64,000 nucleotides of DNA from a virus (taxonomy: Duplodnaviria; Caudoviricetes): IMG/VR virus record IMGVR_UViG_3300033121_001357, positions 1 to 64,000 of that record, one strand, 5' to 3'. A program made the position numbers and the translations under genes. Positions 22,601 to 64,000 of this stretch are shown in pieces. Numbering within the stretch: the first letter of the stretch is position 1; each line of letters begins with the position of its first letter. The notes below the pieces were generated by a model. It was not told where the DNA came from and searched no databases. It saw nothing but the letters and a program-made list of their open reading frames with translations.

Positions 22601-25055
22601 CCCTCATTGAATAGTATTCCTTCAATAGCTCGGGCGTTGAAATTGCCCCGCTCTTGTTATAACCCTTCATAAGGATCTGTCGGGTGGTGGCCATTCTCTG
22701 CTCTAGATCAGCCATATATCCTGAGATCTCGTGAACCATTGCTTCAGTAGCTTGAGGCATTGTTCTTTCGGAGATCTTCTTTAGACCCTGGACGCCATAT
22801 CCCTGAAGTCCCTCAGTGTTCTTCCAGGCAGTGTTCCAAGCGTCATGAAGGGGCGTCCCCTTCATTGCATCCCTGTAGTTAACAAAGTCCCCGCCCGAGG
22901 CAAGCACAGCTCTTTCGTGTGGCGCAAGCATGTCGTTCATATCTTTGAAATAAAGATCGAGCTCTTGCTGGGAGGCGCCCCTCTTTACCAGATCCTGATA
23001 TACGTAATCGTTGCGGGCAACTTCGTACATAGCTGCCATCTTTCTTCCGACGAGGTTATCAAGCTCCTCTTTGATCGTAACCTTCATGCCGAAGCCCTTA
23101 TCGCCCTGACCCAGTGTCCTCTCTAGTTCACCATTCAGGACGAATTTATTTCCATCCTTTGTTGGGATTAGCTGGGCTCTGTTCACGATAAATCTTTCCG
23201 CATTCTCAGGAACTGTCTCGTAGGTTCCATTCGGATTCAGACCAAGTACCTCTCCGGAGCGATAGACAGTGCTCTCTAACATTGCCAACTCTGTTGGAGT
23301 TCCTCCCTGGACTCCAACTCTTTTCATCAGATCTTCTATTTCTGAAACAGCGATGCCGCCCTTAAGACGCTCTCTGAATTCAGCCATTCCAGGGATATCG
23401 GAATCCACCAAGGTCCCGAGGCGGTCACTAAAGAATGAAGATCCATGAAGGTTAACAGTATGGGTGCTTCTGTACTTGATCTTATCAAGTAGGACCATTT
23501 CGTCTTCGTGTAGATTGATGTGACTCAGTCCCACAGCTCTGAAAATACTATTGGATATATCTTGTGGTACCGAGGCTACACGGATATGGCTGAGGGCCTC
23601 ATTGGCTGCAAGCTGGGCACTGCCTCTAACGATGTTCTTGGGGGCGCGCTGCATGTAGCTGACTCGTGTGCCTCTTAAAGACTGAGCAATCGTCTTGTTG
23701 TCACCAGACATCCCAGCGAAGGAAGATCCAAAGATTCTGCCAAATGGGTTCGGAATGTTTCTGATACCAGAAGTCTGCTGTGTTGGGGAAAGACCGGCAT
23801 TGACATCGAACTTCATTGAACCAAGAAGCTCATCATGTAGCTTCATAATATCTGCTGAAGGTGCAGGCATTCCATGGAGACCGCGTAGGGTCACCTGATA
23901 TGCAAGCTTTCTGTTGTAGCTCATATTGGCAGTCATGGCTACAAGAGGCTTGCCAGTGTCCTCTCGTGCATGGCCAATTAGGCTCGCATAGAATCGCCTA
24001 TTTGAAGTCTTACTCTCAACAATGTCTTTTAGCAGACCATCAGCAAATGTCTGAGCGAAGTATTCATCTGGTGAACGATAGAGGGCGTTTATGTCTTTAA
24101 CTCCTGCGATAACGTTCTTTTCAAAGTTCGCTGTTCGAACCCTTCTGGCAATTAGAGTTCTCTCTCCAAATGTACCCAGTCTAACGCGGCCATTCATCTC
24201 TATAGGAAGCTCTGCAATAGTCCTATTCCCCTGAATGATATGCACATTCGCAAGACGCTCTTCTGCATCTACCTGTAGTGCCATCATCTTCATCTGAAGT
24301 CTGGACTTAGAATTGTTTGGTAGGGCGGAATTGTACTCGTTTACAAATTCCTCAATCCTATTCATGTGCTCGAGAAGACCTGGACGATGTGCTAAGCGTG
24401 CGGGATTATAGTCAAAGGTATTGGTGAGAGTGGATACATTGAATGCGTTTAATCCCTTACCGGGCACCTTGGTAAGGTCAGAGATTCTGAGAATTGCTCC
24501 GTTACTTTCAATGTGTGCTGCATTTGCTCTGATAATCTTCTCGGCAGCAGTTCTACCCTTAGCTCCTGTAAGGTTCCCGATAAGCCCCTGCTGACGAGCA
24601 ATAAGTTCCATATACTGACGATGGGCTGGACTGGCGTCCATTATCTGAATAAGAGATTCTCTAGAAGCTCTTCCAGACTTTAGGTCGATACCAAATCCCT
24701 CGAGGTGTCCAGGCTCTAGTTTGAATGCAGTGGCGAGACTTTCGACAGCATGCCCTCTAGCTCTACGGATGCTTGCACGTAGCTCTGGCGTATTAACAGC
24801 ACTTTCAAAGTTTCCCTTACCAGTAAATGCAGAAGCAATATCTTCTGAGCTCATGACATACCTATTCTTACGAGATACCTGTAGAGCATCGAATAGGGCC
24901 CTCTGCTCTCTCTGCTGTCTCCACGGGGCAGAGATAGTACCTCTACCTTTTAGGTCGTCGAGCGTACGAATGCCTGCAGTTGCTAGACCTCCTAGCAACA
25001 TACCTGGTGCGACATAATTCCCGAAGAAATCTCTTCTGGTCTTCTTATTGCTCAT
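19608..25055 (-). CDS. Putative single-chain two-barrel (double-psi beta-barrel) virion RNA polymerase (1815 aa)
   Basis: Ordered motifs: NLHEDEMVL (aa about 516, cf. RpoB NFEDSI); RTLGQGDKGFGMKVTI (aa 651-658, cf. RpoB GDK..G.KGVI); LSGPVSGSSR (aa about 1149, cf. RpoC KRVDYSGR); ILSRDPPT (R1212, cf. RpoC LNRAPT); FGADFDDDQL (D1381/D1383/D1385 at 20901-20915, cf. NADFDGDQM). Confidence 0.75.
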   Translation of the reverse strand: MSNKKTRRDFFGNYVAPGMLLGGLATAGIRTLDDLKGRGTISAPWRQQREQRALFDALQVSRKNRYVMSSEDIASAFTGKGNFESAVNTPELRASIRRARGHAVESLATAFKLEPGHLEGFGIDLKSGRASRESLIQIMDASPAHRQYMELIARQQGLIGNLTGAKGRTAAEKIIRANAAHIESNGAILRISDLTKVPGKGLNAFNVSTLTNTFDYNPARLAHRPGLLEHMNRIEEFVNEYNSALPNNSKSRLQMKMMALQVDAEERLANVHIIQGNRTIAELPIEMNGRVRLGTFGERTLIARRVRTANFEKNVIAGVKDINALYRSPDEYFAQTFADGLLKDIVESKTSNRRFYASLIGHAREDTGKPLVAMTANMSYNRKLAYQVTLRGLHGMPAPSADIMKLHDELLGSMKFDVNAGLSPTQQTSGIRNIPNPFGRIFGSSFAGMSGDNKTIAQSLRGTRVSYMQRAPKNIVRGSAQLAANEALSHIRVASVPQDISNSIFRAVGLSHINLHEDEMVLLDKIKYRSTHTVNLHGSSFFSDRLGTLVDSDIPGMAEFRERLKGGIAVSEIEDLMKRVGVQGGTPTELAMLESTVYRSGEVLGLNPNGTYETVPENAERFIVNRAQLIPTKDGNKFVLNGELERTLGQGDKGFGMKVTIKEELDNLVGRKMAAMYEVARNDYVYQDLVKRGASQQELDLYFKDMNDMLAPHERAVLASGGDFVNYRDAMKGTPLHDAWNTAWKNTEGLQGYGVQGLKKISERTMPQATEAMVHEISGYMADLEQRMATTRQILMKGYNKSGAISTPELLKEYYSMRAEQRVFRGVGLTGKVGSLVFDESKGNLAENFDKAAALTVKRKGRGMWSASKLFEDLSQAEEVSGPQREAFGRIAKLGDDAAARAFYTYMRKGTFTAGGVRTAYGRALQSQLQYGIKNHVFSIGGNSAVTSGSGRMGSISMQMAEHGRAQGGAMADAMIELLGRRSGFDIEEGNEVYRRVGVFMEGISPNVKAITALDLQNANLDEGIYRDLISRNQLKRSKAFSTMRETFDLGDNAPLVFDVTGKGDKGRYIYHPEEISKHTGGFTGPGGRVASTKLDTALVDTIESMANGNEAEAMRGAAIYGDEAAKITIGKNQSPTAALSGPVSGSSRLRAQSNLLPETFAEMGLEGWEHKPLIRESEYEKQLRQLGADADEIAERMADLRSGKAAMILSRDPPTEMFRISAANVGSLDKVLEKHADTIIRNAEDITGLKTSLFSLDSAEYLKTKNRILFDKVVSARLLHDAKRKAEIEVGKVKAETEGARKKKGKGYKTTRRKGRKVLDRTTKSANEAIAKQQQNYDFMHSESRELDLYSRAIKRAVKQKHAGSQVMLPKHMELIFGADFDDDQLNLFAIKDRNTYDKLKTRSRYHQSIVAKYAGLSKQERDAIISNEEDFLKGLRPQQMTAEHQLAEEGFIYKIRQAKLYSALKDAKEAKMIEAADVIPGTPEWNARRIAAAKAAELEKGSIGAMTNATDFSRRVFRQATPSSMVDMRLYGEMLYGVMPESPLKARQIGAGKMAEAADHIEYMMHALQGKFRDVGVPTVAENFRNHFLALHGTEGNLETLGKIASIENTTAIIESAHKAVATGEGNLLRTLRGQDAGVEQLERMITLMRKGSLDTLHGQLYKNATAELVAASEGSSLGRHVRNAATSFEDVYSTFLKHKKPLLVGAGLAIATSMLLSSPGNISSEVADGAEGAHRTGEPTTPPMDMGNFAPVAVGSGKSIRITGSTSSPVNSNAIAERLKHNFPDAGVNLTVNDYRSRINEEYIRRRIERGS

Positions 25056-28000
25056 TAGGCATCTCCATATCTAATGCCAAACTTTCTAAGTTGGGCATCG
25101 ATATCCTGTCTTCTATCTGCTCTTAAGTCTAGTGAGATCCTTGTCTTGTCTCCAATTGTATCAACAACTTCTACATTTAGATCGTTAATCTTTGAAGACG
25201 TTAGGCTCTTAATCACATCCTCTCTTACACCAGCCGACTTCATTAACTTATTTGCTGCAACATCTACATATGGCTTTCTGCTTACATTCATAACATCGTT
25301 ATCCCAAAGGTCAAAGTCATGAAAGTCTTTGCCTAATGTCTGCACTACTTTCAACTTTACATCATCAATATTAACATCTGGATCATATCCAATCCAGTCA
25401 GCTGCTGGCATTCCGAATGGAGACTGGTCATCGAAATATGGCTCTAGTCGTTTTGCTCTTAGATAGTTTGGGAATGTATCTGGATTTGTTCTTCCACTAC
25501 TGACAGCCTTCTGATATGCCTGCCAGCTATTCACATCTGCCATCTGACCTTCTGTGGCCCTTTGACTTTCAATCGCTGTTACGAGATCTTCCTCACTAGA
25601 AGATAGGTCGCCCTTTGCTGCTAGGCCTGCATAGATCTGCTTCTGCCACTGAGCTGTATAGAACTTTCTTGTGTAGTCAGGAACTAGTTCAAGGATTCTG
25701 GCTCTTGCATTGGGGTCTTCAGTAGCAACAAACTCATCAAAGAAGTTTCTCTCCTCTCTTGGGAGTACCTTCTTAATGTTCTCCATGTCTCCATAGGGGT
25801 CAGCACCGTACATTGTGTACTGAGCCTTTCTGGCATAAGCATAAGCAGCTCGACCTTCACCCTGACTTCTTGCATTTGCTTCCAGTCGCTTGTACTTAAG
25901 ATATTCAAGTTTGTCGAAGTAACCCTTAAGGGCTCGCTCTTCCTGAACGCTTCCTGGGATACCTTCATAGCCGAGGAGGTTCATGGTGTTGTTGAAGGCC
26001 GGCTTTATGAAATCCTCAATTGGACCTTCCCAGCTAGGTGTCCTAGTACTGTAAACATTGCGATCTTCGTATTCAGCAATTGCTGATACCGGACCTGCGA
26101 ACTTGTGGACAGGGGAGATGGGTAGTAGGTGCTCTACAGGATTCTTACGGCCAAGCTCTGTAATAAAGCTCCAGTAGTTACCCAGAAGAGAGTCTGGCTT
26201 GTCTCTAAACTCTACCCTCTTCTCTCTTTCGATGAGCTCTTGCTTAGTGGCCTCGTACATCCACCGATCTTGCTCTGAGAGCTGGTTCCCCTTTGCAAGG
26301 TTATCCATCTTTTCAGAGATAGATTTGAATTCCTTCGAGAATGGAGCGACGTCGCCTAAGATTCGATATTTATGAATGTCTGGATAGTCTTCTGGGTTTA
26401 CACCTTTTAGTTCTTCATACCTTGCAGCGTAACCTGATCCTGGAAGTCTATACTCGCCTTCTGGGATTGCAGCGTAAGGATCTCCATGCTTGAAGTCTGT
26501 GTAGTTATTTGGGCCAGGCATCCATGATGGCATCTTATTGGCAATTGGGTTTAGCTTCTGAAGCTCATAGCGTTCGTTAGGAACGAAACGTCTAAAGGCT
26601 TCAGTAGTCATATAGCCACCACCAAGATTCAAATCCCAGAACCGATCTTGCATACTTCCGACATTAGCAAAGGAGGCTAGGACAGGACTATCAACTCCGA
26701 AGTCTGGAGTGCCGGTTAGCTTCTTCTTAAAGGTAGAGAATATGAAGCCCGGAAGACCCGCTGCTTCTGTGGCCTTATAAGCCATTTCTCCGGCCAGAAA
26801 GGACTGACTGTATGGTGAGCTAGCCCTGATGGGTCCTGTGCCCCCTAAAGCCCGGCTAGGGGCATTAGACGCGTCACTGCCGTAGCGAACGATATCTCCC
26901 CTCTCGATGGCTCCCGCATCCCCTCCAAGCTCGTCTGTATGCATTGTGACAGGGTTCTTTAGAACCCTACCAATGGTCATACCCCAAAGGGTGCCTAGCG
27001 GACCAAACCCTGTGGTGTCAGGACCAGAGATTGGGTAGGGCCTGTCCTCATAAAGCTCCTTCTCTTTCCAGTAAGGATCGTAGAGTCCCTTAATGAATCT
27101 GGAGAATGGGCGATCTGCCATACTGCCGAGCTGGAGCTCATCGGCGGGTTTATCCATGAGGCGGCGGAACCACCCGGGCCTATAGTATTTGGTTTCTTCG
27201 CCCTCGATATCGGTACGACCCATTTCCCAGTTCGCACCCTTCTTTACTGCGACTTCTGTTTCTCCAGCCTGCTCGGCCACAACTTCATCGTAGCTTTGAG
27301 AGGAACCAAGTGAGCCTAGGAAGAACGGTGCAGAGAGTGCAGCACCTATCACAGCGCCAGCAAGACCGAACTTGGCACCCCTGGTCATCGGGCTCTTGAC
27401 AAACTTCTTCATGAAGCCCAGCTGCTCTGGTAGTTCATGAATCTCTTCTCTAGCTGTCTTCCAGGCTAGCTGGTCTGAGACTATTGGGTTTGTAAGAGAA
27501 GCAGCAACACGTCCTGTTAGATAGCCTGCCATTGGGAAGGCCATTACACCCAAGAGTCTATGAGAACCCTTTGCCTCCTCCTCTTGATAACTATTTAAGG
27601 ACGTAAGTCCAGTGACATCAGAGGCTCTTGCATAGAGCCTCTGAGCAGCACCAATTGCCTCTCCTCCGAGCTGTCCGAGATTTCTACCACTAAGCAAGTT
27701 GGTAATAGCACTACCAACCTCATAGGTTGCAGCAATCCCAAGGGCCAGGGGGATCATGCGTCTTATGTGTCTGCCCCAGAGGTCTCCTACACTTCCAGTG
27801 TAGTCGCCACCGGTACCAAAGATGTTTCTGAAGAAACCATATGCCTTAGTATTCTTTGCAGCATCTACGGCTCTAGTCTTACCTATCAGTTCTTCAATTG
27901 CCTCGAGAGGCGTGTCCATCATCCGCAGATAGCGCTCGGACATCTTCTTGGCAAATGTATGACCCTCAAGGGCTGCCCTACGGGTTCTTGGAGAAGATGC

Positions 28001-28960
28001 CTTTGTGAGAAAATCCTCAACTGTCGATGGATCAGTAAAGGCACCCACCACCCCTTTGGTTGTACTACCTAGGGATACGCGCTCTGGGGCTTTAAAGACT
28101 TGATAGGTAGATGGGTTCTTATGGGAGATGGGGCGGGCACCCATAGCCTCTGAGATGGCATCTGTATCTCTAATGATTTGCTGAGACTTGGGTAGTCCAG
28201 TATCGGGATTGATCCCGATGTTTGGATCCTCTATGTTCCAGCGACGGACACCTATCTGAACATCTGGGACAAGGAGCTTTCCAATCTTTCCATCAGGGGT
28301 GGATGAGAACAGGCCCGGGAACCTCCCTGGTTCGAGCTCTCCAGTATTAATTAGATCGGTAACACGTAGACGAGCTTGGTCCATGGACATCGGGGTCCCC
28401 GCTGCAAGGGACCTGTTCATGACGTATTCAGCTAAGTGTTCGTTTGTTGTCGGGGAAACGTGAAAGCCATGAATTCTTTCTAGAGGTTCGAGCTTCCTTC
28501 CGACAAGGGCTGCGTAATGATCTTCAGCTCCGATGATATCTGCAGGATTAATCCTGAGATAGGAGTTTGCATCTGTGAAAGCTTGTCTAGAGGCGAAGCC
28601 AAAGAGGCCGAAGGTTCTAGGAACCCCACCACCCATTTCTTCAAATCTCTTAATACCCTCTAAGAGAAAGTCACCAAGGCGGGCTTCAATCTTACCATTC
28701 TGAAGGGCATAGCCCCTTACCCCCCACCAAGGAGTCTGACCAGCCCTATTGAGACCTTCGGTAAGATACTGAAACTTATGTGGGTCAACTGATACGGTTA
28801 CGTTCTTAGATGCCCAACGTACACCGTAGATACCAACAGTGCCCAGTGCAGCATACTTGAGAGCGTTTGTAAGGGTGTGCGTCTTCCGATCCTCAGAAGG
28901 TCCCACCTCTGCGAATGGCTGTCGGTTAGCTCCTCTGATGATCTTTGCAACGTCATTCAT
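25055..28960 (-). CDS. Tape-measure-like / DNA ejection protein (1301 aa)
   Basis: Follows two chaperone-like genes after the tube genes; several Gly/Ala-rich hydrophobic segments (IPLALGIAATYEVG, LLGVMAFPMAGYLTG, FGLAGAVIGAALSAPFFLG); coupled to the 1815-aa gene by TAATG. Confidence 0.5.
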   Translation of the reverse strand: MNDVAKIIRGANRQPFAEVGPSEDRKTHTLTNALKYAALGTVGIYGVRWASKNVTVSVDPHKFQYLTEGLNRAGQTPWWGVRGYALQNGKIEARLGDFLLEGIKRFEEMGGGVPRTFGLFGFASRQAFTDANSYLRINPADIIGAEDHYAALVGRKLEPLERIHGFHVSPTTNEHLAEYVMNRSLAAGTPMSMDQARLRVTDLINTGELEPGRFPGLFSSTPDGKIGKLLVPDVQIGVRRWNIEDPNIGINPDTGLPKSQQIIRDTDAISEAMGARPISHKNPSTYQVFKAPERVSLGSTTKGVVGAFTDPSTVEDFLTKASSPRTRRAALEGHTFAKKMSERYLRMMDTPLEAIEELIGKTRAVDAAKNTKAYGFFRNIFGTGGDYTGSVGDLWGRHIRRMIPLALGIAATYEVGSAITNLLSGRNLGQLGGEAIGAAQRLYARASDVTGLTSLNSYQEEEAKGSHRLLGVMAFPMAGYLTGRVAASLTNPIVSDQLAWKTAREEIHELPEQLGFMKKFVKSPMTRGAKFGLAGAVIGAALSAPFFLGSLGSSQSYDEVVAEQAGETEVAVKKGANWEMGRTDIEGEETKYYRPGWFRRLMDKPADELQLGSMADRPFSRFIKGLYDPYWKEKELYEDRPYPISGPDTTGFGPLGTLWGMTIGRVLKNPVTMHTDELGGDAGAIERGDIVRYGSDASNAPSRALGGTGPIRASSPYSQSFLAGEMAYKATEAAGLPGFIFSTFKKKLTGTPDFGVDSPVLASFANVGSMQDRFWDLNLGGGYMTTEAFRRFVPNERYELQKLNPIANKMPSWMPGPNNYTDFKHGDPYAAIPEGEYRLPGSGYAARYEELKGVNPEDYPDIHKYRILGDVAPFSKEFKSISEKMDNLAKGNQLSEQDRWMYEATKQELIEREKRVEFRDKPDSLLGNYWSFITELGRKNPVEHLLPISPVHKFAGPVSAIAEYEDRNVYSTRTPSWEGPIEDFIKPAFNNTMNLLGYEGIPGSVQEERALKGYFDKLEYLKYKRLEANARSQGEGRAAYAYARKAQYTMYGADPYGDMENIKKVLPREERNFFDEFVATEDPNARARILELVPDYTRKFYTAQWQKQIYAGLAAKGDLSSSEEDLVTAIESQRATEGQMADVNSWQAYQKAVSSGRTNPDTFPNYLRAKRLEPYFDDQSPFGMPAADWIGYDPDVNIDDVKLKVVQTLGKDFHDFDLWDNDVMNVSRKPYVDVAANKLMKSAGVREDVIKSLTSSKINDLNVEVVDTIGDKTRISLDLRADRRQDIDAQLRKFGIRYGDA

Positions 28961-50715: not shown

Positions 50716-51230
50716 TAGACGAGATGCTCCGTGTATTCGATCTCAAGGGCAAAGTTTAAGTCGCCTTGTGGGCACCCTCGAGTACAGGAGACTCTTACCC
50801 AAAATGGATAGTACTTTGTATCCGCATGTCCCGCGGAGCCAAGTTCTGGCAGTCGCGTGTCAATTGCACCACCCACCAAGGGTGACTGTAGAACAGCACA
50901 GTCGTTGGGATCTAGAGGATCGTCTCCCGAACCCGGACCGTTAGGGGCAACAGAAGCCCAGCGATTCTCAGCAGGCTCCTTGTCTCCAGACAGAAGCTTA
51001 ATGCTTACAGCAGTACTCGTAATCGCAGCTCCGATAGTCGACGTAGGTCGGAGACGGATATCTGTGTAGTACTTCGTTGCATCTGTATTGCGGATATACA
51101 CCTTCTTCGTAACTGGAGAGCCACCGGGACTTGTTGCCAAAAGAACTGGAGCAGCAAATGTCACGGAGGAAATCTCGTCGAATGTTGCGGTGCTTTCATT
51201 GAGGATATAAAGCTTAATCATTCGGTTCAC
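50715..51230 (-). CDS. Putative structural protein (171 aa)
   Basis: Beta-rich; 'KKVYIRN....YY..I' and 'PFWVRV'; overlaps the terminase stop. Confidence 0.5.
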   Translation of the reverse strand: MNRMIKLYILNESTATFDEISSVTFAAPVLLATSPGGSPVTKKVYIRNTDATKYYTDIRLRPTSTIGAAITSTAVSIKLLSGDKEPAENRWASVAPNGPGSGDDPLDPNDCAVLQSPLVGGAIDTRLPELGSAGHADTKYYPFWVRVSCTRGCPQGDLNFALEIEYTEHLV

Positions 51231-54940: not shown

Positions 54941-55546
54941 TTAGTTCTCGATAGCTTCATCCTCTTTCCAAATAATCCCATCCAATATACGACCGATTGT
55001 AGATCTGGATACGCCGTATAGCTCTGCTAACCTTGTCCTTTCACCGCGCTCTCCAGTGCCAGATGCTCTTATCTCTCTTACAATCTTCCATGTAAGTTTG
55101 GCAAGATTATGCATTTCACCTCGTCTCTTTTTGCTCATTTTCTGCTTTGACTCTTCTCTATGTTTATAACCTAGAAGTCCATTTGGCTTGCCCTTTCTCG
55201 TGAGACTCTGTCTTATTCTTGCTTCTGTGGACTTCTTCGAGCCTAAAGAGCTTCCTGCTTTCGGACAAATATTGTATCCAAATTTTGGATCTGCACTCTT
55301 GAATAGGTCAATGAAATATTGCTCTCTTTCTATCAGGAACTCTTTGTTTTCAACAAATTCAAGAACTCCAAAATGGAAGTTCTCTATTCCTCGAATATTT
55401 ACCGCTCTTTGTAGGTAGAGATTATGGTGTTACTGTTTATTGAGTGAGCTTTTATGTGTTCTCCACCTACCCATAAGGTTAATGGCAGACCCAATGTACA
55501 CCTTATCTGTATTTAGATCTAAAATGTAATAAATACCACTAGCCAT
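54941..55546 (-). pseudogene. GIY-YIG homing endonuclease gene with an in-frame TAA (201 codons if intact)
   Basis: MASGIYYI......VYIGSA.NL..RW..H...L.KQ*HHN.YLQRA...F.F.VLE.....REQ.FID...GYN..., then NUMOD3-like HREESKQKMS and a C-terminal HTH. Stop at 55430-55432; the track shows only the last 65 aa. Confidence 0.85.
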
Positions 55547-56474
55547 GGTATGCAAGAGCCTCTGAACCGAAAGCAGATCGACAATTCATTTGCGAGCGAT
55601 AAATAGACTGTACTGCTCTCTGCCTCATTGTTGCTGCTTGTTCTGAATCCAAGAATGTAGACCTAAATGGCTTTGAGTGGCGTCCATATTTAAGGCCCCA
55701 GTCTGATAGGGCATGGACTCCTTCAATGGCTTTAGTGGCCAAAATTGCTCCACCAAATGCCATACCCAAGAACCCTACACCAGCAGCAACTGTACCAATG
55801 GCAGTACCAGGGGCGAGTGAGGAGCCTATCGCGGCACCTACGGCACCACCACCCACGAAGCCAATTTCAGAAGCTACTGACTGTGCAAGCATCGGAGCAA
55901 GGCCGGTCTTTGGATCCATTAAGTTATCGCCACTTGTTAGGGCTGCGAAACCGGCATGAAGACCCCACGCTAGAGGTGAGAGTACAGAGAACTTAGCGAA
56001 GTTGCTAGCACCCTTACGCAGATGCTGTGCTGGAGTTCTCATCCCAAACTTACGAGCACCAAGATTGCCAAATTCATCAATCTGACGGCCGTACTTATTG
56101 GCGATACGTCCAGCAGTATCTCTCTCTGCAATCGGGACCCCTTCTCTGTAGTATTTGTCCGCAAGTCGCTGATTCTTTCTTAGTTCTGTGGCGAGATTCC
56201 CTCTCCAATTTAGATACCCATCTGTTAGATGTAGGGGAGCCATAGCGGCCCCTCTCAAGATACTCCTAGAATTCACAGCGGCATTGGCCATGCCACTTAG
56301 AGCAAGTGCAGTCACCTGTCTGGTACCTTGAAGGGCATGGAAGATAGTCTGGCCAGCCATTGTATCGGGCGCCTGTCCATACCCAAATAGACCTCTACTA
56401 AGACCCTGCCAGATTCCTCTTTGGGTCTGACTATGCTTTGCCCACCTATCTCTAAGTCTTTCGTAAGGAGTCAT
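55539..56474 (-). CDS. Glycine-zipper protein; putative ejection / membrane-channel protein (311 aa)
   Basis: 'IGFVGGGAVGAAIGSSLAPGTAIGTVAAGVGFLGMAFGGAIL' GxxxG zipper; basic remainder. Confidence 0.5.
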   Translation of the reverse strand: MTPYERLRDRWAKHSQTQRGIWQGLSRGLFGYGQAPDTMAGQTIFHALQGTRQVTALALSGMANAAVNSRSILRGAAMAPLHLTDGYLNWRGNLATELRKNQRLADKYYREGVPIAERDTAGRIANKYGRQIDEFGNLGARKFGMRTPAQHLRKGASNFAKFSVLSPLAWGLHAGFAALTSGDNLMDPKTGLAPMLAQSVASEIGFVGGGAVGAAIGSSLAPGTAIGTVAAGVGFLGMAFGGAILATKAIEGVHALSDWGLKYGRHSKPFRSTFLDSEQAATMRQRAVQSIYRSQMNCRSAFGSEALAYHG

Positions 56475-56477
56475 GCC

Positions 56478-59400
56478 TTAACCTCTATGGTGTCCTATTA
56501 CATTGTATCTATTCATATTTCTACGCATCTGACTAACTGCCGCTCTATGTCCTGACATTAAGGAAGACTTGGCATTTAGGTTTGTGGGCGTACGCGGAAT
56601 CTTGTTCCTATCAATGACATATCCGGAACCAAAATCCTTGATATTGGCTTCACGACTAGCGCCAATCCAACCATGTTTCATGCCCTCAATTGTATTGAAG
56701 TCGTCTTTTCCACCAGCAGCTTGCATATCAGAGAATTCTGCATCTGGATTCCTCATTCTATTTAGGATTGCAGCGGTTTTGAAGTCTCTGAACAAGCGTC
56801 CTAGATCTGTATAGCTAGTATTAGTAATACGACGCTTGCTGTTCATCTGCATCTCTCTAGAGATCTGCCAGGCTTCTTCGTTCCACATACCACGTTGAGC
56901 GGCAAGAGCTTCTTGCTCTGCTCTATTAAAATCTGTGGCGTTTACGATCTGGTCCTTTCTCTTACCAAAGGGCAGAGAGGCTGCTGCACCTGCTTCAACT
57001 AACTGAAGGTTGATGTTGGTGTTGTTGTCACCCAAAAGGACACCGGCTGTACGACCATAAGAGGAGCTGCCATCTGGATTATAGGCTAGACGTAGCTGCT
57101 CCTGCCTTGCAAGGATCTGCTCTAGCTTTGCCTTGGCCTCTTGACCGTAGGGCTGATTTGGCCAGATTCTTCCAGGCTGATTCTCGTGTTCAATTTCAGG
57201 GGCGTCAATGCCAGCAAGACGGACAGTCATCTCTCGTCCACCTCGCAGAGTCACGTTTACGGTGTCAGCGTCTTCTACAGAGTAATCTGTAATCGTTGAA
57301 TCCTGGATGTCGCTACCCTGGAAGCCCATATTGAGTCCTTCAAATGGATCCTTCAAGGTATGTGAGCGGGCGATGTGTCTGGAGTACTGCTCAAGACCTT
57401 CCTGGAGGATGTCTTCAGCGAAAATCCTCATACCCTGCCATGGAGAGCCGAAGCCATAGTGCTTACGCATTCGGGCCCCAATACCCTTACGTCCAGTCAG
57501 AGGAGACTCCTCCTGCATACCCATAATGCTGTTTCCATGGATGTTTGTTGGGATGCGGAACCCACTTCGACGACTGCTTCGTCTAATCCCGTTATCACCC
57601 CCTTGATCCATGGATGTGATTCTAGCGAACTGCTCAAGACCTTCCTGAGAGATATCTTCAAAGAAAGGACGGAGTCCCTGGATGTCCTGAGACGACATGC
57701 CTTGCCATGGAGAACCGAAGCCGAAAAACTTTCTAAGCTTCGCACCTATACCCTTCTTACCAGAGATAGGCGATTCCTCTTGCATACCAGGAATGACGTT
57801 AGCTTCTACGTTGGATTGGATTCGATTTTGAGCTTCAGCGGCCTGCTTTCGCAGGATTGCTGCTTGCGCTCGCTGTTCTATTGCGATCTTTCTAGCTCGT
57901 GCTGGAGTTATACCTAGCTCACCACGGGCATCCATGCTCCTGAGTAACTGGCCAATTGAATCATTGGCCAAGGACTCTGGATAATGTTCATACTGGGTCT
58001 TGTGAGCGCTAAATTCTTCGAACCATTGATGAGACCTTTCTGAGTATCCACTTTTTGCAAATGCTTCCTTTGCCTCTTCACTTAAAGACCCAGTCCTACC
58101 ACTAAGCGAGTTGCCGGCATGTTTCTGGTGATCTCTCTCATGCTTGATTGCTCCTCTAAGTACCTGTCCTGGATCTAGGTTATGCTCTTTAGCATAGTCC
58201 TTTGCCGCCCTTGAGTTAATAAAGACAGGCCTTAAGCCCTTAGATTCTGCATCTGCAACTTGCTTAAGAAATGCCTCTTTCTCGCTAGCGAGCCCTTCGA
58301 TATCCTTTGCATATTCAAGCCACTCTCCCTCTTCGCCTTCAGCACTCCATCTCTTATACCGATCTATTTTTGATTCCTGTTCCGCAAAGAATTGTTCCCA
58401 GCCCTTCACGGTATTGAAATCGGGGGCCCTCTCATGCATGAACTTTATTTCATTGGCTAGGGCATCAGACCATGGCACACCCCGTGCTTCGCACGCCTTT
58501 TCGGCAACCGAGGCCACCTCTTCCAGACTGTTTTTTACATACACGAATCCAACTGCTCCAGTTTCACGACCCATGACTTTAGAAAGAGCCCCTTCGCCAA
58601 AACTGATTATGCCCCTCCAACCTGAACCGAAGTCAGTATTGTACTTACGCGAAGCTCCCGAGATACCTGCGTGCTTCATACCTTCGATATAGTTGTAGTC
58701 ATCATCATTAGAACTAATGAGATTTGCGGCAAAGAGGGCACCAGCGCCCACTAAACCAATCTTCCAGTTCTCTCTGAGGAAGTTCTTAAACTTAGACCCC
58801 ATTGAGGCTTCAGCAACTTCAGGAGCTGCACCAGAAGGAACAAGCCGAGGACTAAGCTCCTGTGCTAGAGATTCCATCTTAGGAGCATGCGTACTAAGCG
58901 CATGTTCTAGAGCCTCTGCCCGAGTTGCCCCTCCTGCTACCTTGGCCTTTACAGACTCCTCAAAGGCATCGATGTAGCGGGTCCTAGCTTCTGCGAGGGC
59001 AGCATCATAGTCAACCTTGACTCCAATACCGCTACGAGCCTCTCGGGCAGCCCTGGCCCTAACCACCTTCTCGATATCCGTAGAGAACTCATGCGGATTC
59101 ATTCTGGGATCTGCCTTTGTTCTAAGGAAGAACTGTAGCTTCCTACGGCTATACGTTCCGGTGTTATCGTCTAGGACTTCTACTGGAAGGCTTAAGGTTC
59201 TATTAGAATGTCTTACACGAGCCCCCTTTAATAGCTCATAATCAGGCTTGCCCTGTGCCTTGGAGAGAAGGAATTTCTGCTGATTCGTATATGTATCAAT
59301 GATGTTCTTTACAGTATTCCTTCTCTTAATCTCCGGAAGGTCCTTACCAAGATCCCCAAAGAATCTCTGCATATGCTCTGGCAGAGCTTCTCCCTTCTGC

Positions 59401-60317
59401 ATCGCATAACCAGCTCCGGCTAGATCTCTAACCATCTGCCCCTGGAGAACGTTGTCAGCAAGTGCTGTATGCAACTCATTCTCGCCATACATCAAGTTGG
59501 CATAGGTATTTACGCTGGTTCCTGTAAAGATTTCTCCTGTCTTAGGCATATACCCACGGTTCTGAGCCATGGCAAATACAGACTTTGACAAGTCCATAAT
59601 GTCAAATACTCGAGTACCGTTGAAGGACCTTTCAAGCTCTGGAGCGAATCCCTTGGTAAAGACTTCTTCCCAGGCATTAAGGTGCGTATCTAATGTCCCC
59701 AGTGCTGTAGCTCTAGATGCCCTACCAAGAGTCTGCTTGAGTTCCAGGGGAGTGGTGTAGAGGCCACCTCCAGGAGTTGGAGATCCTCTCGTGAAACTCT
59801 GTAGTCGATTCTTGACGCCCCAGTTCTCAAAGTGCTGTGCGCCTATACGCTCATTAATAAATGAGCGTTCGTGTTGCAGGTTCTGCACCCAGACATCGCG
59901 ATTCCCGAGCTGTGAGAGGGCCTTATAGCCTGCTTGCTTCTGGGTGGTACTGGCGTTATGGAGCACGTCCATAAATGGCCCAGAAAGGTCCCCAGAGGCC
60001 TGCAATGCGGCCTCTCTCTTTGCGATTAGGTCACGGGTAAATGGAGAGATCTCACCAGTTCGCTTTCCGCCGATGACAGTTGGCTTTACGAATTCGTGAG
60101 TGAAGGTAGACTTGGGCCCGATGCCATGCATGAAGCCCATTTCGTAGATAGGAGAGGAGGGATGAAGGCCACCAGTCTCAATATCAAAGATGGTTGCTCT
60201 AGAAGCAATCTTTGACAGTTGCTCTTCAACTCCTGTAGAGAATGATTGAGTGCCATTAAGAAGTCTGTCTCTATACTCCTTAGCTAATTCAATTTCTCTC
60301 CAGGAGCCGTATGACAT
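56478..60317 (-). CDS. Modular (polyvalent) protein: DEDDh exonuclease + HExxH zincin + SNase-like nuclease (1279 aa)
   Basis: IFDIETGGL...QNLQHE...HTALAD (DnaQ-like); IKHERDH...FEEFSAH (zincin, 58128-58142); VEDADT..VRLAGIDAPE..YG.EA..YGR..NINLQLVEAG.A (thermonuclease). Confidence 0.8.
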   Translation of the reverse strand: MSYGSWREIELAKEYRDRLLNGTQSFSTGVEEQLSKIASRATIFDIETGGLHPSSPIYEMGFMHGIGPKSTFTHEFVKPTVIGGKRTGEISPFTRDLIAKREAALQASGDLSGPFMDVLHNASTTQKQAGYKALSQLGNRDVWVQNLQHERSFINERIGAQHFENWGVKNRLQSFTRGSPTPGGGLYTTPLELKQTLGRASRATALGTLDTHLNAWEEVFTKGFAPELERSFNGTRVFDIMDLSKSVFAMAQNRGYMPKTGEIFTGTSVNTYANLMYGENELHTALADNVLQGQMVRDLAGAGYAMQKGEALPEHMQRFFGDLGKDLPEIKRRNTVKNIIDTYTNQQKFLLSKAQGKPDYELLKGARVRHSNRTLSLPVEVLDDNTGTYSRRKLQFFLRTKADPRMNPHEFSTDIEKVVRARAAREARSGIGVKVDYDAALAEARTRYIDAFEESVKAKVAGGATRAEALEHALSTHAPKMESLAQELSPRLVPSGAAPEVAEASMGSKFKNFLRENWKIGLVGAGALFAANLISSNDDDYNYIEGMKHAGISGASRKYNTDFGSGWRGIISFGEGALSKVMGRETGAVGFVYVKNSLEEVASVAEKACEARGVPWSDALANEIKFMHERAPDFNTVKGWEQFFAEQESKIDRYKRWSAEGEEGEWLEYAKDIEGLASEKEAFLKQVADAESKGLRPVFINSRAAKDYAKEHNLDPGQVLRGAIKHERDHQKHAGNSLSGRTGSLSEEAKEAFAKSGYSERSHQWFEEFSAHKTQYEHYPESLANDSIGQLLRSMDARGELGITPARARKIAIEQRAQAAILRKQAAEAQNRIQSNVEANVIPGMQEESPISGKKGIGAKLRKFFGFGSPWQGMSSQDIQGLRPFFEDISQEGLEQFARITSMDQGGDNGIRRSSRRSGFRIPTNIHGNSIMGMQEESPLTGRKGIGARMRKHYGFGSPWQGMRIFAEDILQEGLEQYSRHIARSHTLKDPFEGLNMGFQGSDIQDSTITDYSVEDADTVNVTLRGGREMTVRLAGIDAPEIEHENQPGRIWPNQPYGQEAKAKLEQILARQEQLRLAYNPDGSSSYGRTAGVLLGDNNTNINLQLVEAGAAASLPFGKRKDQIVNATDFNRAEQEALAAQRGMWNEEAWQISREMQMNSKRRITNTSYTDLGRLFRDFKTAAILNRMRNPDAEFSDMQAAGGKDDFNTIEGMKHGWIGASREANIKDFGSGYVIDRNKIPRTPTNLNAKSSLMSGHRAAVSQMRRNMNRYNVIGHHRG
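56619..58706 (-). repeat. Four copies of a protein-level linker repeat (N-x-I-x-GM...R....FGS[GP][WY]) in the modular protein
   Basis: Copies at about 58611-58706, 57696-57800, 57429-57533 and 56619-56708. Confidence 0.85.
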
Positions 60318-60320
60318 AGC

Positions 60321-61154
60321 TTACTTCCCCGCAATCTTTGCTTCGATTTGCTGTAGCTTCTGACGTAGATCCGCTTGTAGATTCGCAGCATCTACCTTGT
60401 TTGTCTCGTTAAGAGCAGCCTCTCTCTTGTACTGGTCGTATCTTGTAGCTACGAGGTTCTTACGAAGTCTTTCCTTTCTAGTGTAGATCTTCTCCTTAAC
60501 CTTCATAGCATCAGCAACATCCTTTACATGTTGCTCTCTTTCACCATTCTCATCATATACGACAGCAACAATCTTATCCTCAGTAAGGTCCTGATACTTT
60601 GCTGCCAATACTGCGTTCATTCGGTGCTCTAGTACCTCACACTCAGCAAGCTCTAAGATCACTCTTTGATCTGTATAGTTACCGGGATCGTCTGTAACAC
60701 CAAACTCTTCCGCATATCTAGCTACCCATTCAAATAGTAACTCTGTCTCTACAGGACAAGTTCTACCAATTGGGACCACGTTCCTCTGTTCACCTTCAGC
60801 ATCTAGTTGCTTTTGTAGTTGTACAAAGGGGCAAGAGGCTGCCATAGGACAGACACTCCCTCCATAACAGATCAGGGGAGTAGAGGAGGTGGCTCCAATC
60901 TTCATTCTGTTCTGTGCTGCGTGAATCTGGCGGGCCTCTTCAGGAGTAAGAAGAATATCGGCATACTTGGCAGGATTGAGATTCAATCCCTTAAACCAAT
61001 TATGCCTTACAAGCTTCCCTTCTGTAGTGATAGCAGTTCCATCAAACTTAACCAGAGCAATCTTCTCACCATGGTTCTTATCAATCTTCGCTATCTGCTG
61101 TGTTGCCGGAGTTCCATCCTCATCAACAGCAACTATAAAGTCTTCTCTTTGCAT
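60321..61154 (-). CDS. Cys-rich hypothetical protein, possible terminase small subunit (about 277 aa; start reassigned to MQREDF)
   Basis: AAGGAG precedes ATG 61154; C.G...CP...CP...G..CP.E cluster then long helices. The TerS suggestion rests on position and size only. Confidence 0.4.
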   Translation of the reverse strand: MQREDFIVAVDEDGTPATQQIAKIDKNHGEKIALVKFDGTAITTEGKLVRHNWFKGLNLNPAKYADILLTPEEARQIHAAQNRMKIGATSSTPLICYGGSVCPMAASCPFVQLQKQLDAEGEQRNVVPIGRTCPVETELLFEWVARYAEEFGVTDDPGNYTDQRVILELAECEVLEHRMNAVLAAKYQDLTEDKIVAVVYDENGEREQHVKDVADAMKVKEKIYTRKERLRKNLVATRYDQYKREAALNETNKVDAANLQADLRQKLQQIEAKIAGK

Positions 61155-61462
61155 AGCTCCTTCTCTACCTCTTGGACAAGCTCCTTCACCGCATCCCAAC
61201 GATCACCCCTGTTCGTAAGAGAATCCAATAAGGCTCTCTGTACATACTTACAGTCCATAACGTCTTGATGCTCAGTAGCATTAGCCAATCCAAAGATCCT
61301 TTGTACGTATACTCCATTCTCTCCAAGAGCTGTTCTTAACATCTCCAGTAGAGCAATTACCTTAAGAGTCGTATCCAAAGAAACTCCAAGCTTCTCTTGG
61401 CAGAGCTTGTCAAACTCTCTTCTAACTTCTGTCATATTTGTCGTCTCCAGAAAGGACATCAA
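61133..61462 (-). CDS. Hypothetical protein (about 100-109 aa)
   Basis: Coding-strand ORF overlapping the next gene; start uncertain. Confidence 0.5.
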   Translation of the reverse strand: MMSFLETTNMTEVRREFDKLCQEKLGVSLDTTLKVIALLEMLRTALGENGVYVQRIFGLANATEHQDVMDCKYVQRALLDSLTNRGDRWDAVKELVQEVEKELCKEKTL

Positions 61463-61946: not shown

Positions 61947-62171
61947 TTTTCGTTCTCCAACTTAAAAGGTAGTACCCGTTTCCCTCCGAATAAGGTCAAT
62001 AACCAATAAGACCTTAGGTTAAAACCTATTGTAAGTAGAAGGGTGCTGGAAATAAAGGGGAATAGAATTCCTCGTGTGAGAGACCCGTTCGTGAACTCAC
62101 ACGTTCATTCTTCGTTAAAACTTGAATGAACCTGAAAATAAATACCGAATTTTACATCTGCTAAGTCTTCC

Positions 62172-62362
62172 CGCGTGAGGACCTGAAATTGCTGAAAAAA
62201 TATGGAGCTACCTAGCTTCATATGAGCATTAGCGAAATATGAAGGTGTGAGCTTTTGCGAACAGTGAGTTCCTAAAAAGTAAGAGCGAATACATCAAGTT
62301 GCAGTTCTCGCATCCTCTCGCGTAAGACCTCGAAATTGCTAAAAAAATATGGAGCTACCTAG
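62172..62362. repeat. Imperfect 44-bp direct repeat, 2 copies 147 bp apart
   Basis: 62172-62215 CGCGTGAGGACCTGAAATTGCTGAAAAAATATGGAGCTACCTAG and 62319-62362 CGCGTAAGACCTCGAAATTGCTAAAAAAATATGGAGCTACCTAG. Confidence 0.9.
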
Positions 62363-62520
62363 TGAGTTCTGTCGACACTCAAGGGACCCGTAGTTGCGAG
62401 CCCCCGGGGGTCGGATATAGGACTCATGGTGTGGTGGTCAGGCGCCACGTTAAACAAACCTGACTGGTGCATTCAGTCCACTGGCCAATAATTAGTGGAC
62501 ATTGAAGCAAGGAGATAGCC

Positions 62521-62832
62521 ATGCTGTCCAACGATTTCTTCCGTTTCATCTTCATCGAGCGTAGTACTCACTCCCGCACGGCAATGCTGGAGATGCTGGA
62601 CGCGCTGTACAACTACTACCCCGAGGGCCGGGAGGAGAACGCGGCCATTCTCACTCTCAGTCTCGACTGCATCAACGCGTGCGAGGGCGAGAGTGAGAAT
62701 GAGAAGGACCTCCTCCGCCGCAGGGCCGAGGCCCGGGCCGCGAAGTTCGATCAGAACTTCTTGCAGGATGAGATGCGGGAGCTGGCTGACCTCCGAATCG
62801 CCAAGGAGGCAGAGGAGGCTCAGGACTGGTAA
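62521..62832 (+). CDS. Hypothetical protein (103 aa), first gene of the GC-rich plus-strand block
   Basis: SD AAGGAG; strong GC3 bias; acidic and helical. Confidence 0.75.
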   Translation: MLSNDFFRFIFIERSTHSRTAMLEMLDALYNYYPEGREENAAILTLSLDCINACEGESENEKDLLRRRAEARAAKFDQNFLQDEMRELADLRIAKEAEEAQDW

Positions 62833-62869
62833 GATCCGAGCTTCTTCGCTTCTCTTCCTACAGCCCTCT

Positions 62870-63037
62870 AGCAGAACGGGCATCACAATAGTTCTGCTCT
62901 CCACTTATACCTATCAGCATCACAACTAAAGTGGTGTTGGTAGATATAAGGGTGCAAGGAAGCCCACTGTGGATGGTCCATAGTGGGTACGGTTACCTGT
63001 CCACTGGGTAGTGGACACGGGCCCTATTGTATAGGGC
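62870..63037 (+). other. Array of five tandem stem-loops in an intergenic region
   Basis: Hairpins at 62870-62898, 62904-62950, 62963-62987, 62998-63017 and 63021-63037; most stem mismatches read as G:U on the plus strand. Confidence 0.7.
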
Positions 63038-63050
63038 ATGGGGCAGGTAG

Positions 63051-63263
63051 ATGCTGTTCTTGATCTCGTGGCTGCTGAAGGCGAAGTTGCAGTTCTGGAT
63101 GCGGTGGGGGAAGTGGACGGCCCGGGGTCTCCTGGGCGCGTACGCGTATATGTACTGCACCAGGTCGGGGGCGATGTTCGTCCCCGTGATCCTGGCGGCC
63201 GTCCTCGTCCTCGCTGTCCGGGAGCGGCGTACGCCGCTCCCCAAGCGGCGACGATTGAACTAG
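63051..63263 (+). CDS. Small membrane protein (70 aa)
   Basis: GC3-biased frame; hydrophobic AMFVPVILAAVLVLAV then a basic tail; bounded by hairpin arrays. Confidence 0.55.
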   Translation: MLFLISWLLKAKLQFWMRWGKWTARGLLGAYAYMYCTRSGAMFVPVILAAVLVLAVRERRTPLPKRRRLN

Positions 63264-63269
63264 GTGATG

Positions 63270-63414
63270 GGTGTCGAGGACTTCGGTCCTCGACATTAAA
63301 CCACAGCCCCCGTCCAAAGTCGTGGGGCACAGGTGTGCAGAAGCCATCGTCACATAGTGTGGTCGGTGGCACATTCATCGTCTGGCTACGGTCAGACAAT
63401 CGCCCTTAGGGGCA
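63270..63414 (+). other. Second intergenic stem-loop array with UNCG tetraloops
   Basis: TGTCGAGGAC-TTCG-GTCCTCGACA (63272-63295), GTCTGGC-TACG-GTCAGAC (63380-63397), plus weaker stems at about 63306-63328, 63343-63370 and 63402-63414. Confidence 0.7.
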
Positions 63415-63427
63415 GAAAGGCAGCATC

Positions 63428-64000
63428 ATGCTGCGCATCATCTCTCTCTCCCTCGTCCTGTTCGGCGTGTTCGGCGCGTGGCTCGGGATGCTGATGGACA
63501 CGGCGGCCATCGCGACCGCCACCACCAGCAGCATCGCCACCCACCCCTCGTTCGCCGGCATCTCCTGGATCGGCATCGCGGTCATGATCGTCGGCATGCT
63601 CCTCGGGCGCCTGTCCGGCCTCGTCGCCCACCGCGGCAACGTCTCCGCCATCGTCGTGTCCGAGGAGCTCTTCAACCAGGTCGCGGACTTCTGCGACGTG
63701 GAGGTCCGTGACCTCGAGGAGAGCCCGGTGCGGTCCCTGGATGCCGAGGGCATCGAGCAGATCGCGAGCCTCCAGATGAACATTCGGGAGGTGATCGCTC
63801 GCCTCCCGAAGCCGGCCGATCTGGCCGGTGCCGAGGCCTTCCGCGCCTACAACAAGGCGCAGCGTGAGATGGCGAGCCCGATCGCCACGATCGCCCGCAT
63901 CGCTCGCCGTGAGGCGTTCGATGCCCACATCCAGTACCGGCGGGCGCTCCGGGGGACGGTCGGCTTCCCGATGCTCCAGTGCACCCCGTCCTGCCGGGAC
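63428..64000 (+). CDS. Membrane protein with two N-terminal hydrophobic helices (partial, at least 191 aa; not in the ORF track)
   Basis: AGAAAGG then ATG 63428: MLRIISLSLVLFGVFGAWLGMLMD...FAGISWIGIAVMIVGMLLG...; open to the window end; nearly all third positions G/C. Confidence 0.75.
   Translation, partial: MLRIISLSLVLFGVFGAWLGMLMDTAAIATATTSSIATHPSFAGISWIGIAVMIVGMLLGRLSGLVAHRGNVSAIVVSEELFNQVADFCDVEVRDLEESPVRSLDAEGIEQIASLQMNIREVIARLPKPADLAGAEAFRAYNKAQREMASPIATIARIARREAFDAHIQYRRALRGTVGFPMLQCTPSCRD

Follow-up and report, generated by a model that had tools for sequence, protein, structure and literature searches.

An unannotated junction motif delimits exchangeable cassettes in a polyvalent-type multi-enzyme protein of an uncultured phage

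The first 64 kb of the IMG/VR virus record IMGVR_UViG_3300033121_001357 (94,493 bp; the 64 kb are called "the window" in the following) contain a gene for a protein of 1279 amino acids (aa), P0001, which is an open reading frame (ORF) with translation at positions 56478..60317 on the minus strand. In this polyvalent multi-enzyme protein several enzyme domains are strung together, and four copies of a motif of about 35 residues lie at the domain junctions. The comparison of P0001 with its relatives revealed that the motif is the exact boundary for the replacement, deletion, and duplication of whole cassettes, and that the breakpoints lie on its DFGS[GP]W core. The polyvalent multi-enzyme architecture as such was already known; the conserved junction motif at every domain boundary is not annotated in the family libraries that were searched. 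The favored interpretation, to which a probability of about 0.5 is assigned, is that P0001 is a delivered polyvalent effector in which the motif is the point of cassette exchange and, in addition, a signal that is read by a conserved factor.

The junction motif of P0001 and its family

The order of the elements in P0001 is a DnaQ-like DEDDh exonuclease, a hydrophobic helix, the first copy of the motif (R1), a domain with an HExxH sequence and a downstream Glu, the copies R2 and R3, a staphylococcal nuclease (SNase) domain, the copy R4, and a basic tail. The order of domains and repeats up to R4 had been proposed in an initial annotation made from the DNA alone, and the architecture was borne out by the translation of the ORF, by matches to hidden Markov models (HMMs), by Pfam, and by AlphaFold2 (AF2) models. 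R1 (aa 536-568, 58614..58712, minus strand like all elements of P0001) belongs to type A of the motif, matched the repeat HMM with an E-value of 4.8e-22, and had values of 24-44 in the predicted local distance difference test (pLDDT). Directly before it the sequence contains a basic stretch and the hydrophobic helix (aa 509-535, 58713..58793; predicted helix 509-531). R2 (aa 836-875, 57693..57812, E 4.5e-9) belongs to type B, reads GMQEE ... FGSPW, and has a 7-residue insert in the four-copy alignment. R3 (aa 925-964, 57426..57545, E 7.1e-9) is also of type B and arose as a tandem copy of the unit that contains R2. R4 (aa 1203-1234, 56616..56711, E 3e-19) is again of type A.

The consensus of the motif is FSGxDDxYNTIEG[LM]xHGGxAxxxR[KR]xNTDFGS[GP][WY]xG. 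The highest conservation was found for F and S (99%), followed by R (94%), the two central Gly residues (94% and 91%), and N (89%). About a fifth of the copies, including R2 and R3, are of type B, in which Glu replaces His; some of these have an insert of 7-8 residues. The repeat HMM was built from the four copies and iterated on 236 instances, nearly all of which stem from other proteins. The search of this genome and of related phages with an HMM of the four copies had been suggested in the initial annotation. In a six-frame scan of the 94,493-bp record only R1-R4 were matched (the next best match had an E-value of 0.24), and many related proteins were matched as well. Among the first homologues, 84 of 86 contained the motif (237 instances), and in the pooled set 581 instances were found in 194 of 196 proteins, which contained between one and seven copies. 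When a profile made from 54 copies was compared with 1.84 billion representative proteins, it matched 669 clusters (50% identity) at E<=1e-3, 106 of them at E<=1e-30. All of these clusters are metagenomic.

The motif is not covered by Pfam, NCBIfam, or PHROGs, and no PDB chain was matched even at E<=10, in agreement with the earlier statement that the repeat was not recognized as a described family. DNA and protein searches of the records of cultured phages yielded no relative of the family, only one unrelated SNase, and a literature search for FGSGW in phages returned only unrelated papers. Several known elements were considered for the motif, i.e., a double-glycine leader, an EF-hand loop, a relic of a kinase DFG sequence, a T4-type LxE site, and a signal-peptidase site, and none is supported by the sequence, because each shows a misfit in register or conservation.

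In P0001 each enzymatic domain is indeed followed by a repeat, as had been noted initially. This description does not hold for the family, because in about half of its proteins no repeat follows the last domain; the family-wide position of the repeat is between domains. The median spacing of successive FGS cores is 273 aa, roughly the length of one domain, and the shortest spacing is 41 aa. Some short members of the family start with a helix and a repeat or with the repeat itself, and some members found in the profile search have a length of only 418-667 aa. A word-based search for shorter proteins with R1 did not detect small single-domain carriers of the motif.

In both AlphaFold runs every motif copy had pLDDT values of 24-48 beside domains at 82-97, and in the AF2 model R1 was not packed against the well-modelled exonuclease. 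In addition, hot spots for insertions were found in the interior of the motif. The low pLDDT values agree with the tandem copies and the tolerated insert, and together they suggest that the motif behaves as a flexible linear element; the evidence is only moderate, because the AF2 alignments were shallow (28-34 rows).

Exchange of whole cassettes at the motif

The initial annotation had named variable domains between conserved repeats as support for its proposal. Such domains were found: in the first 86 proteins, the 286 segments between repeats fell into 68 similarity clusters (50 singletons), and the order of the cassettes was shuffled. The recognizable cargo consisted mostly of protein-kinase-like domains (ABC1, Pkinase, APH, RIO1, WaaY, and OspG-like), SNase domains, and DEDD exonucleases, and zincin-like domains were also found. 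Most cassettes are unknown domains. In single family members (34-protein alignment, P0087-P0192) an intein (Intein_splicing plus LAGLIDADG_3), TCAD9, and DnaJ were observed.

Pairs of very similar proteins allowed the direct observation of exchange. P0010 and P0011 share 99.3% of their residues over aa 1-557 and 96.8% between aa 759 and 873, respectively, and the end, and the middle parts are unrelated cassettes of about 200 and 315 aa. The same pattern was seen for P0017 and P0021. On the DNA level, the contigs L077 and L078, which encode P0010 and P0011, are 97.9% identical up to nucleotides (nt) 4667 and 11667, respectively, where ...TDFGSGWQGL in the first repeat ends, and the identity restarts at 5345 and 12697, at TDFGSGW of the next repeat. 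A deletion is exemplified by P0009, which equals P0005 minus the zincin cassette; the deletion lies between two repeats and has left a tandem repeat pair. A duplication is found in P0001 itself. The pairwise alignment of R2 and R3 showed that they are a tandem duplication of one unit, with a similarity that extends about 25 aa past the motif; this unit is an apparently empty cassette.

For a quantitative view, the ends of homology were scored in protein pairs that had high-scoring segment pairs with at least 80% identity, which gave 24 internal ends in 9 pairs. Of these ends, 79% were located within a repeat, compared with 13% for random positions. When relatives were aligned with P0001, the N-terminal homology mostly ended at aa 567-576 and resumed at aa 921-998. 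The repeat had earlier been suggested as a handle for the swapping of cargo, and the replacements and deletions in near-identical relatives, which start and end in repeats, directly support this suggestion. The repeats do not reveal to which cassette they belong, since their identity among homologous cassettes was 0.475 upstream and 0.49 downstream, with a background of 0.443, and is thus uninformative on this point.

The recent breakpoints in the repeats would also be compatible with a repeat that acts only as a recombination handle at the DNA level and has no role in the protein, which was one variant of the initial proposal. This variant is weakened by the nucleotide sequences and is extremely unlikely. 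The four copies R1-R4 share only exact stretches of about 8 nt and differ at synonymous sites. In 56 distinct DNA instances the invariant Ser was encoded by TCN in 50 cases and by AGY in 6 cases, all four codons were used for Gly, and each conserved residue of the motif uses several codons. Because Ser is encoded by both codon families and the synonymous sites have diverged, selection acts on the motif peptide.

Enzyme domains of P0001

The N-terminal domain (aa 1-496, 58830..60317) consists of a DnaQ-like DEDDh core (aa about 35-310, 59388-60215) and an extra subdomain. In up to 34 homologues H283 was invariant, and D45, E47, D141, and D288 were present in at least 90%. The AF2 model of aa 1-496 had a pLDDT of about 90 and a predicted template modelling score of 0.82. 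The structural comparison of the exonuclease model with DNA Pol III epsilon gave a Z-score of 11.7 and a root mean square deviation of 2.6 Å over 161/174 residues. In a structure comparison (VIA), the exonuclease domain of DinG had a Z-score of 11.9, and ExoI, Cap18, and TREX1-like proteins were similar (Z 11.9-10). The best Foldseek matches were nearly all DnaQ-like exonucleases or polymerase proofreading domains, while the Pfam model RNase_T did not detect the domain. By its motifs (DxE, D, and Hx4D) and its predicted RNase H-like fold the domain is thus a DEDDh (DnaQ-like) 3'-5' exonuclease. It is an ordinary member of this group with respect to sequence, catalytic residues, and fold; in contrast to the known members it bears an additional helical/beta subdomain of about 190 aa.

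The SNase domain (aa about 1005-1150, 56868..57305) matched PF00565 at aa 1031-1147 with an E-value of 3.2e-18 and 66.6 bits, compared with a cut-off of 21. It also matched the NCBIfam thermonuclease model NucI (E 1.7e-11), at a score under the cut-off of that model. The model of the domain had pLDDT values of 82-96 and a TM-score of 0.85 to staphylococcal nuclease (1syb and others), and the catalytic-type residues R1033, D1038, E1041, and R1089 were invariant in 28 homologues. The profile, the predicted OB-fold, and the R-D-E-R residues assign this region to the staphylococcal nuclease family PF00565. Here again an ordinary member is found, but it is embedded in a string of 1279 aa. A PDB profile search with the full P0001 alignment was dominated by SNase mutants and returned nothing for the other parts of the protein.

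The cassette between R1 and R2, D2 (aa 580-823, 57849..58580), is helical and has a zincin (gluzincin/MPTase-like) signature. It contains the sequence HERDH (aa 726-730, 58128-58142), and E767/E768 follow downstream. The signature HE[RQ]xH, followed after 35-45 residues by EE[YF]xA, was found in 23 domain copies in 22 of the 196 pooled family proteins. An HExxH helix with a downstream Glu is given as the sequence signature of zincin-like MPTases in the work on polyvalent proteins by Iyer, Burroughs, Anand, de Souza, and Aravind (2017; PMC5512222). D2 did not match any profile in Pfam (E<=1) or NCBIfam, and in the ESM Atlas only a weak LPD23 lead with a score of 0.86 was obtained. AF2 modelled aa 580-830 as helical with pLDDT values of 50-67, which are too low to be used for a search or to confirm a zincin fold, with its three-stranded sheet, one N-terminal helix, and two helices at the C-terminus. 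Therefore, of the initially proposed zincin domain, HERDH and the downstream Glu are supported by their conservation in 23 copies, while the fold is unconfirmed.

P0001 ends with a basic tail (aa 1235-1279, 56481..56615, ending ...HHRG), which is kept in near homologues. A terminal HHxG, or a motif similar to GG[KR]GH about 16 aa before the end, is found in 96 of the 196 family proteins, and the last 50 aa of the family proteins contain 20% K/R and 6% D/E.

Gene neighborhood and fusion to a tail-locus protein

P0001 is encoded in a tight block of three genes. Its ATG lies 3 nt past the stop codon of the upstream gene, and the ATG of the downstream gene lies 3 nt past the stop codon of P0001. 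The upstream gene (60321..61199, minus strand) encodes a protein of about 277-292 aa with four conserved cysteines (C111, C117, C123, and C148) and a coiled-coil tail. Its true start is probably M16, and an entry in the ESM Atlas begins at residue 16. This four-Cys protein had no match in Pfam, PHROG, or NCBIfam, and in the ESM Atlas it led to clusters of viral hypothetical proteins and only to weak YonG/Terminase_4 leads. The downstream gene (55539..56474, minus strand) encodes a glycine-zipper membrane protein of 311 aa with a conserved C-terminal motif, TMRxR...NARSA.G.EA. A C-terminal signal common to P0001 and this 311-aa neighbor was considered and rejected, because cross-matches of the tail HMMs were no better than E about 1. 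Both flanking genes are as conserved as P0001, and both are without family annotation.

The conservation of the block was analyzed in 75 related viral contigs, 64 of which had exactly one repeat-bearing ORF. In 54 of these 64 loci the gene immediately upstream of the repeat-bearing ORF encoded a homologue of the four-Cys protein, and in 45 the gene immediately downstream encoded a homologue of the glycine-zipper protein, with -3 nt as the commonest gap on the downstream side. All three genes were found together in 38 loci, and the gaps were mostly -10 to +4 nt. In dozens of loci the block was located 2-3.5 kb upstream of TerL and about 7-8 kb upstream of the portal-MuF gene. A 203-kb relative has a gene for an HNH endonuclease (L078:16909-17301, plus strand) between the polyvalent block and TerL, one 200-aa gene before TerL; at the corresponding place in the window no HNH endonuclease was detectable.

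A further connection was found when all cargo segments were searched against the phage's own ORFs. The tail (tape-measure) locus of the window encodes a giant protein of 1301 aa (25055..28960, minus strand), which begins with a hydrophobic helix and had no match in Pfam or PHROG. Six relatives of P0001 (P0039, P0043, P0052, P0079, P0086, and P0165) have a C-terminal cargo that is 34-37% identical to it over about 700-1070 aa, and their layout is exonuclease-helix-repeat-SNase-repeat-giant. In the contig L079 the fused gene lies in a tail module that is collinear with the window, with the order sheath, tube-like genes, small genes, fusion, another giant gene, and finally the counterpart of the gene for the 2016-aa peptidase/lysozyme protein. 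Because this fusion sits in the tail module, a protein of the tape-measure locus physically includes the enzyme head in some relatives. Proteins of this locus are expected to accompany the particle. The 94-kb record contained no further repeat or cargo homologue that could represent an orphan cassette, except for the 1301-aa giant.

Interpretation and alternative explanations

According to the favored interpretation, P0001 would be a polyvalent effector with its domains arranged like beads on a string, encoded by a large, contractile-tailed phage with an estimated genome size of about 200 kb. As for other polyvalent proteins, it would be made at the same time as the products of the virion genes and would enter the recipient cell together with the DNA. 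Delivery with the virion, as in the injected effector proposed initially, is probable; the support is indirect and comes from the gene arrangement, i.e., the linkage to terminase and portal and the fusion to the tail-locus giant in six relatives. The motif would be read as a signal by a conserved factor, and candidates for this factor are the co-encoded four-Cys or glycine-zipper protein, the prohead protease, and the interior of the capsid or the tail. The nucleases, and in relatives the kinases, may act on nucleic acids and proteins of the host or of competitors at the start of infection.

Two functions of such a signal come into question. A processing site, at which the enzymes would be separated from each other, can be proposed tentatively, and it is favored because a cut would release units that other phages encode separately. 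Such separately encoded units are the stand-alone giant and P0176, a form of 418 aa with the layout helix-repeat-SNase-repeat-tail. A docking peptide that loads the string into the particle, or holds it there, comes close to the processing site in probability. It would be similarly speculative to regard the motif as the universal cargo junction of an unrecognized phage effector system, in which an injected polyprotein has a crossover point that is at the same time a cut or load signal acting via a conserved factor.

The initial annotation had pointed to a zincin as processing enzyme. The zincin-like cassette drops out as a general processing enzyme, because only 22 of the 196 family proteins carry it. 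The more restricted idea that the HExxH cassette of P0001 cuts the repeats itself could refer to the conserved signature HE[RQ]xH with the downstream Glu and to the autoprocessing by MPTases that is proposed for polyvalent proteins in PMC5512222. Nevertheless, self-processing is very unlikely in view of the rarity of the cassette among repeat-bearing proteins, the natural deletion of the cassette in P0009, which keeps the repeats, and the unconfirmed peptidase fold.

Several observations weigh against the interpretation of the motif as a signal in a delivered effector. Elsewhere in the 94-kb record no protein contains the repeat, and, thus, it is not a tag that is common to several cargo proteins. 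The stand-alone 1301-aa giant contains no copy of the motif. Stand-alone short members keep the motif N-terminally, which would fit a retained signal and a cleaved propeptide equally well. In addition, breakpoints in linkers are also expected from selection against broken domains, and low pLDDT values obtained with shallow alignments are no proof of disorder. The last two points lie close to an explanation without any signal, namely that the motif is a small folded or metal-binding hinge, and that the breakpoints fall there because breaks within domains are lethal. The conserved N, E, H/E, R, T, D, and S residues could, together with the Gly and aromatic positions, form a metal-stabilized or self-stabilized knot, and the few rows of the AF2 alignments also speak for this explanation. 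However, the conservation, with 94-99% at five positions across 669 clusters, is too strong for an ordinary linker, the motif occurs in tandem without a domain between the copies, it tolerates an insert of 7-8 residues in its middle, and it had no sequence match in the PDB. A hinge is, therefore, quite unlikely.

A different role would be played by P0001 if it is not delivered, but acts as a membrane-anchored array of enzymes in the cell, held at the inner membrane by the hydrophobic helices and the glycine-zipper protein. The nucleases and kinases would then attack superinfecting DNA or that of the host by degradation, or they would reshape the envelope, and the motif would be a membrane-proximal interaction element. 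This is a serious rival because of the association of helices and repeats and because of the membrane protein that is the conserved downstream neighbor. A helix resembling a transmembrane helix lies directly before 22% of the repeats and before 43% of the first repeats, compared with 2.7% of random positions, and in P0095 and some other proteins helix and repeat alternate (helix-repeat-helix-repeat). On the other hand, 78% of the repeats have no preceding helix, kinases and nucleases on alternating sides of a membrane are implausible, and neither the tight linkage to terminase and portal nor the fusion to the tail-locus giant in relatives would be expected. An undelivered membrane array is, thus, judged to be unlikely, and a delivered effector with the motif as exchange point and signal remains the favored interpretation.

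Genomic context and occurrence

CheckV rates the 94,493-bp record as 46% complete, and the genome probably has, therefore, a size of about 200 kb. Nearly all genes of the window are carried by the minus strand. They include TerL (51227-53212), a fusion of the portal protein and a Mu-F-like domain (46472-48544, minus strand), the major capsid protein (42137-43435), and the tail sheath (32929-35436). At the tape-measure position three giant ORFs of 1301, 1815, and 2016 aa are found. In TerL, the cultured phages that come closest, with 25-33% identity, are the jumbo myoviruses Moorella MTATph1, Bacillus WH1, Bacillus 0305phi8-36, and Acinetobacter ME3.

The 2016-aa protein (13558-19608, minus strand) had PHROG matches to a metallo-endopeptidase-like region at aa about 360-480 and to an endolysin-like region at aa about 1618-1971, and it is likely to be a tape-measure or ejection protein with wall-degrading domains. 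This protein and the SNase region of P0001 both match phrog_8809 (2317 positions), at different parts of the profile. The C-terminal Mu-F-like domain of the portal protein was matched by PF04233 at aa 545-684 with 29.0 bits, compared with a cut-off of 29.6, and by phrog_4728. MuF is usually a separate protein, which often carries effectors. In the region 62000-64000, where the minus-strand block ends, the G+C content rises up to 0.58, compared with 0.44-0.50 elsewhere, and ORF calls overlap on both strands. A scan for promoters and terminators between 53.0 and 62.6 kb yielded counts that equal the shuffled expectation.

Contig pieces with at least 99% identity to the locus 55500-61300 were found in activated-sludge, riverine, and wastewater runs from four studies. 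These pieces have lengths of only 150-430 nt and are uninformative with regard to cassette variants. One metatranscriptome library is among the runs with pieces of the locus; their presence there does not show transcription.

Significance

Polyvalent proteins are regarded as the earliest weapons that enter a cell with a phage. For the question of how their sets of domains are assembled, exchanged, and released, the family described here, with at least 669 clusters at 50% identity, offers a junction that is defined by sequence, and the exchange is directly visible between natural genomes that are nearly identical. The motif also provides a short peptide as a candidate for a cleavage or loading signal. 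If it is such a signal, it would serve generally to detect injected effectors of large phages that are uncultured, and it would be a route by which foreign cargo is brought into phage particles. The many unknown cassettes that the repeats delimit form a catalogue of candidate domains for host takeover or anti-defence.

Comparison with known systems

Proteins that are carried in phage particles are known from T4, i.e., Alt and the IPs with their capsid-targeting sequence, and from the inner body of phiKZ. They are made late, carried by the particle, ejected, and cut by the prohead protease at sites that are conserved. The cleavage signals in T4 and phiKZ are short (LxE or S/A/G-x-E) and common to several head proteins. 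In contrast, the motif of P0001 has about 35 residues and is restricted to one protein per genome. The cargo-loading peptides of encapsulins are also short and conserved; they reside in disordered tails or linkers and dock enzymes inside a shell with the HK97 fold. The likeness of the P0001 motif to these peptides is an analogy only, without sequence similarity.

In architecture, P0001 is comparable to the polyvalent proteins that phages and conjugative elements encode. These combine two to 15 disparate domains per polypeptide in a mosaic fashion, and co-delivery with the DNA as well as proteolytic release have been proposed (Iyer et al. 2017, PMC5512222). P0001 likewise joins unrelated catalytic domains, i.e., nucleases and a zincin-like domain, with kinases in relatives, and its family is mosaic. 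Judged from its sequence, it fits the architectural definition of a polyvalent protein. In text searches of PMC5512222 the terms "SNase", "linker", and "DnaQ" were not found, and P0001 did not match the Pfam families MPTase-PolyVal and LPD at E<=1. The domains by which the class was recovered include MPTase, MuF, ArdC-N, DdrB-ParB, and LPDs. As far as Pfam detects them, the hallmark modules MuF, ArdC-N, and SNF2 are not present in P0001, and MuF is fused to the portal protein instead. A second difference is that the P0001 family has one conserved motif at every domain junction, a feature that did not turn up in the text searches of PMC5512222.

In polymorphic toxins a short motif, e.g., VENN in CdiA or PxxxxDPxGL in Rhs proteins, demarcates the variable effector tips, and the Rhs junction motif is also a cleavage site. 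The variation concerns one C-terminal tip, and each toxin is accompanied by an immunity gene and by orphan cassettes. The P0001 family also exchanges cassettes at a conserved junction motif, with the breakpoints in the repeats, and polymorphic toxins are the nearest functional analogy; a cassette analogy with these toxins is mentioned in PMC5512222. The P0001 family differs in that the variation concerns several internal cassettes, which all have the same motif on their flanks, and in that the neighbors belong to the same two families whatever the cargo is, with no cognate immunity gene. If the motif is indeed the universal cargo junction of an injected polyprotein, the family would be a multi-cassette, virion-borne counterpart of the polymorphic toxin systems.

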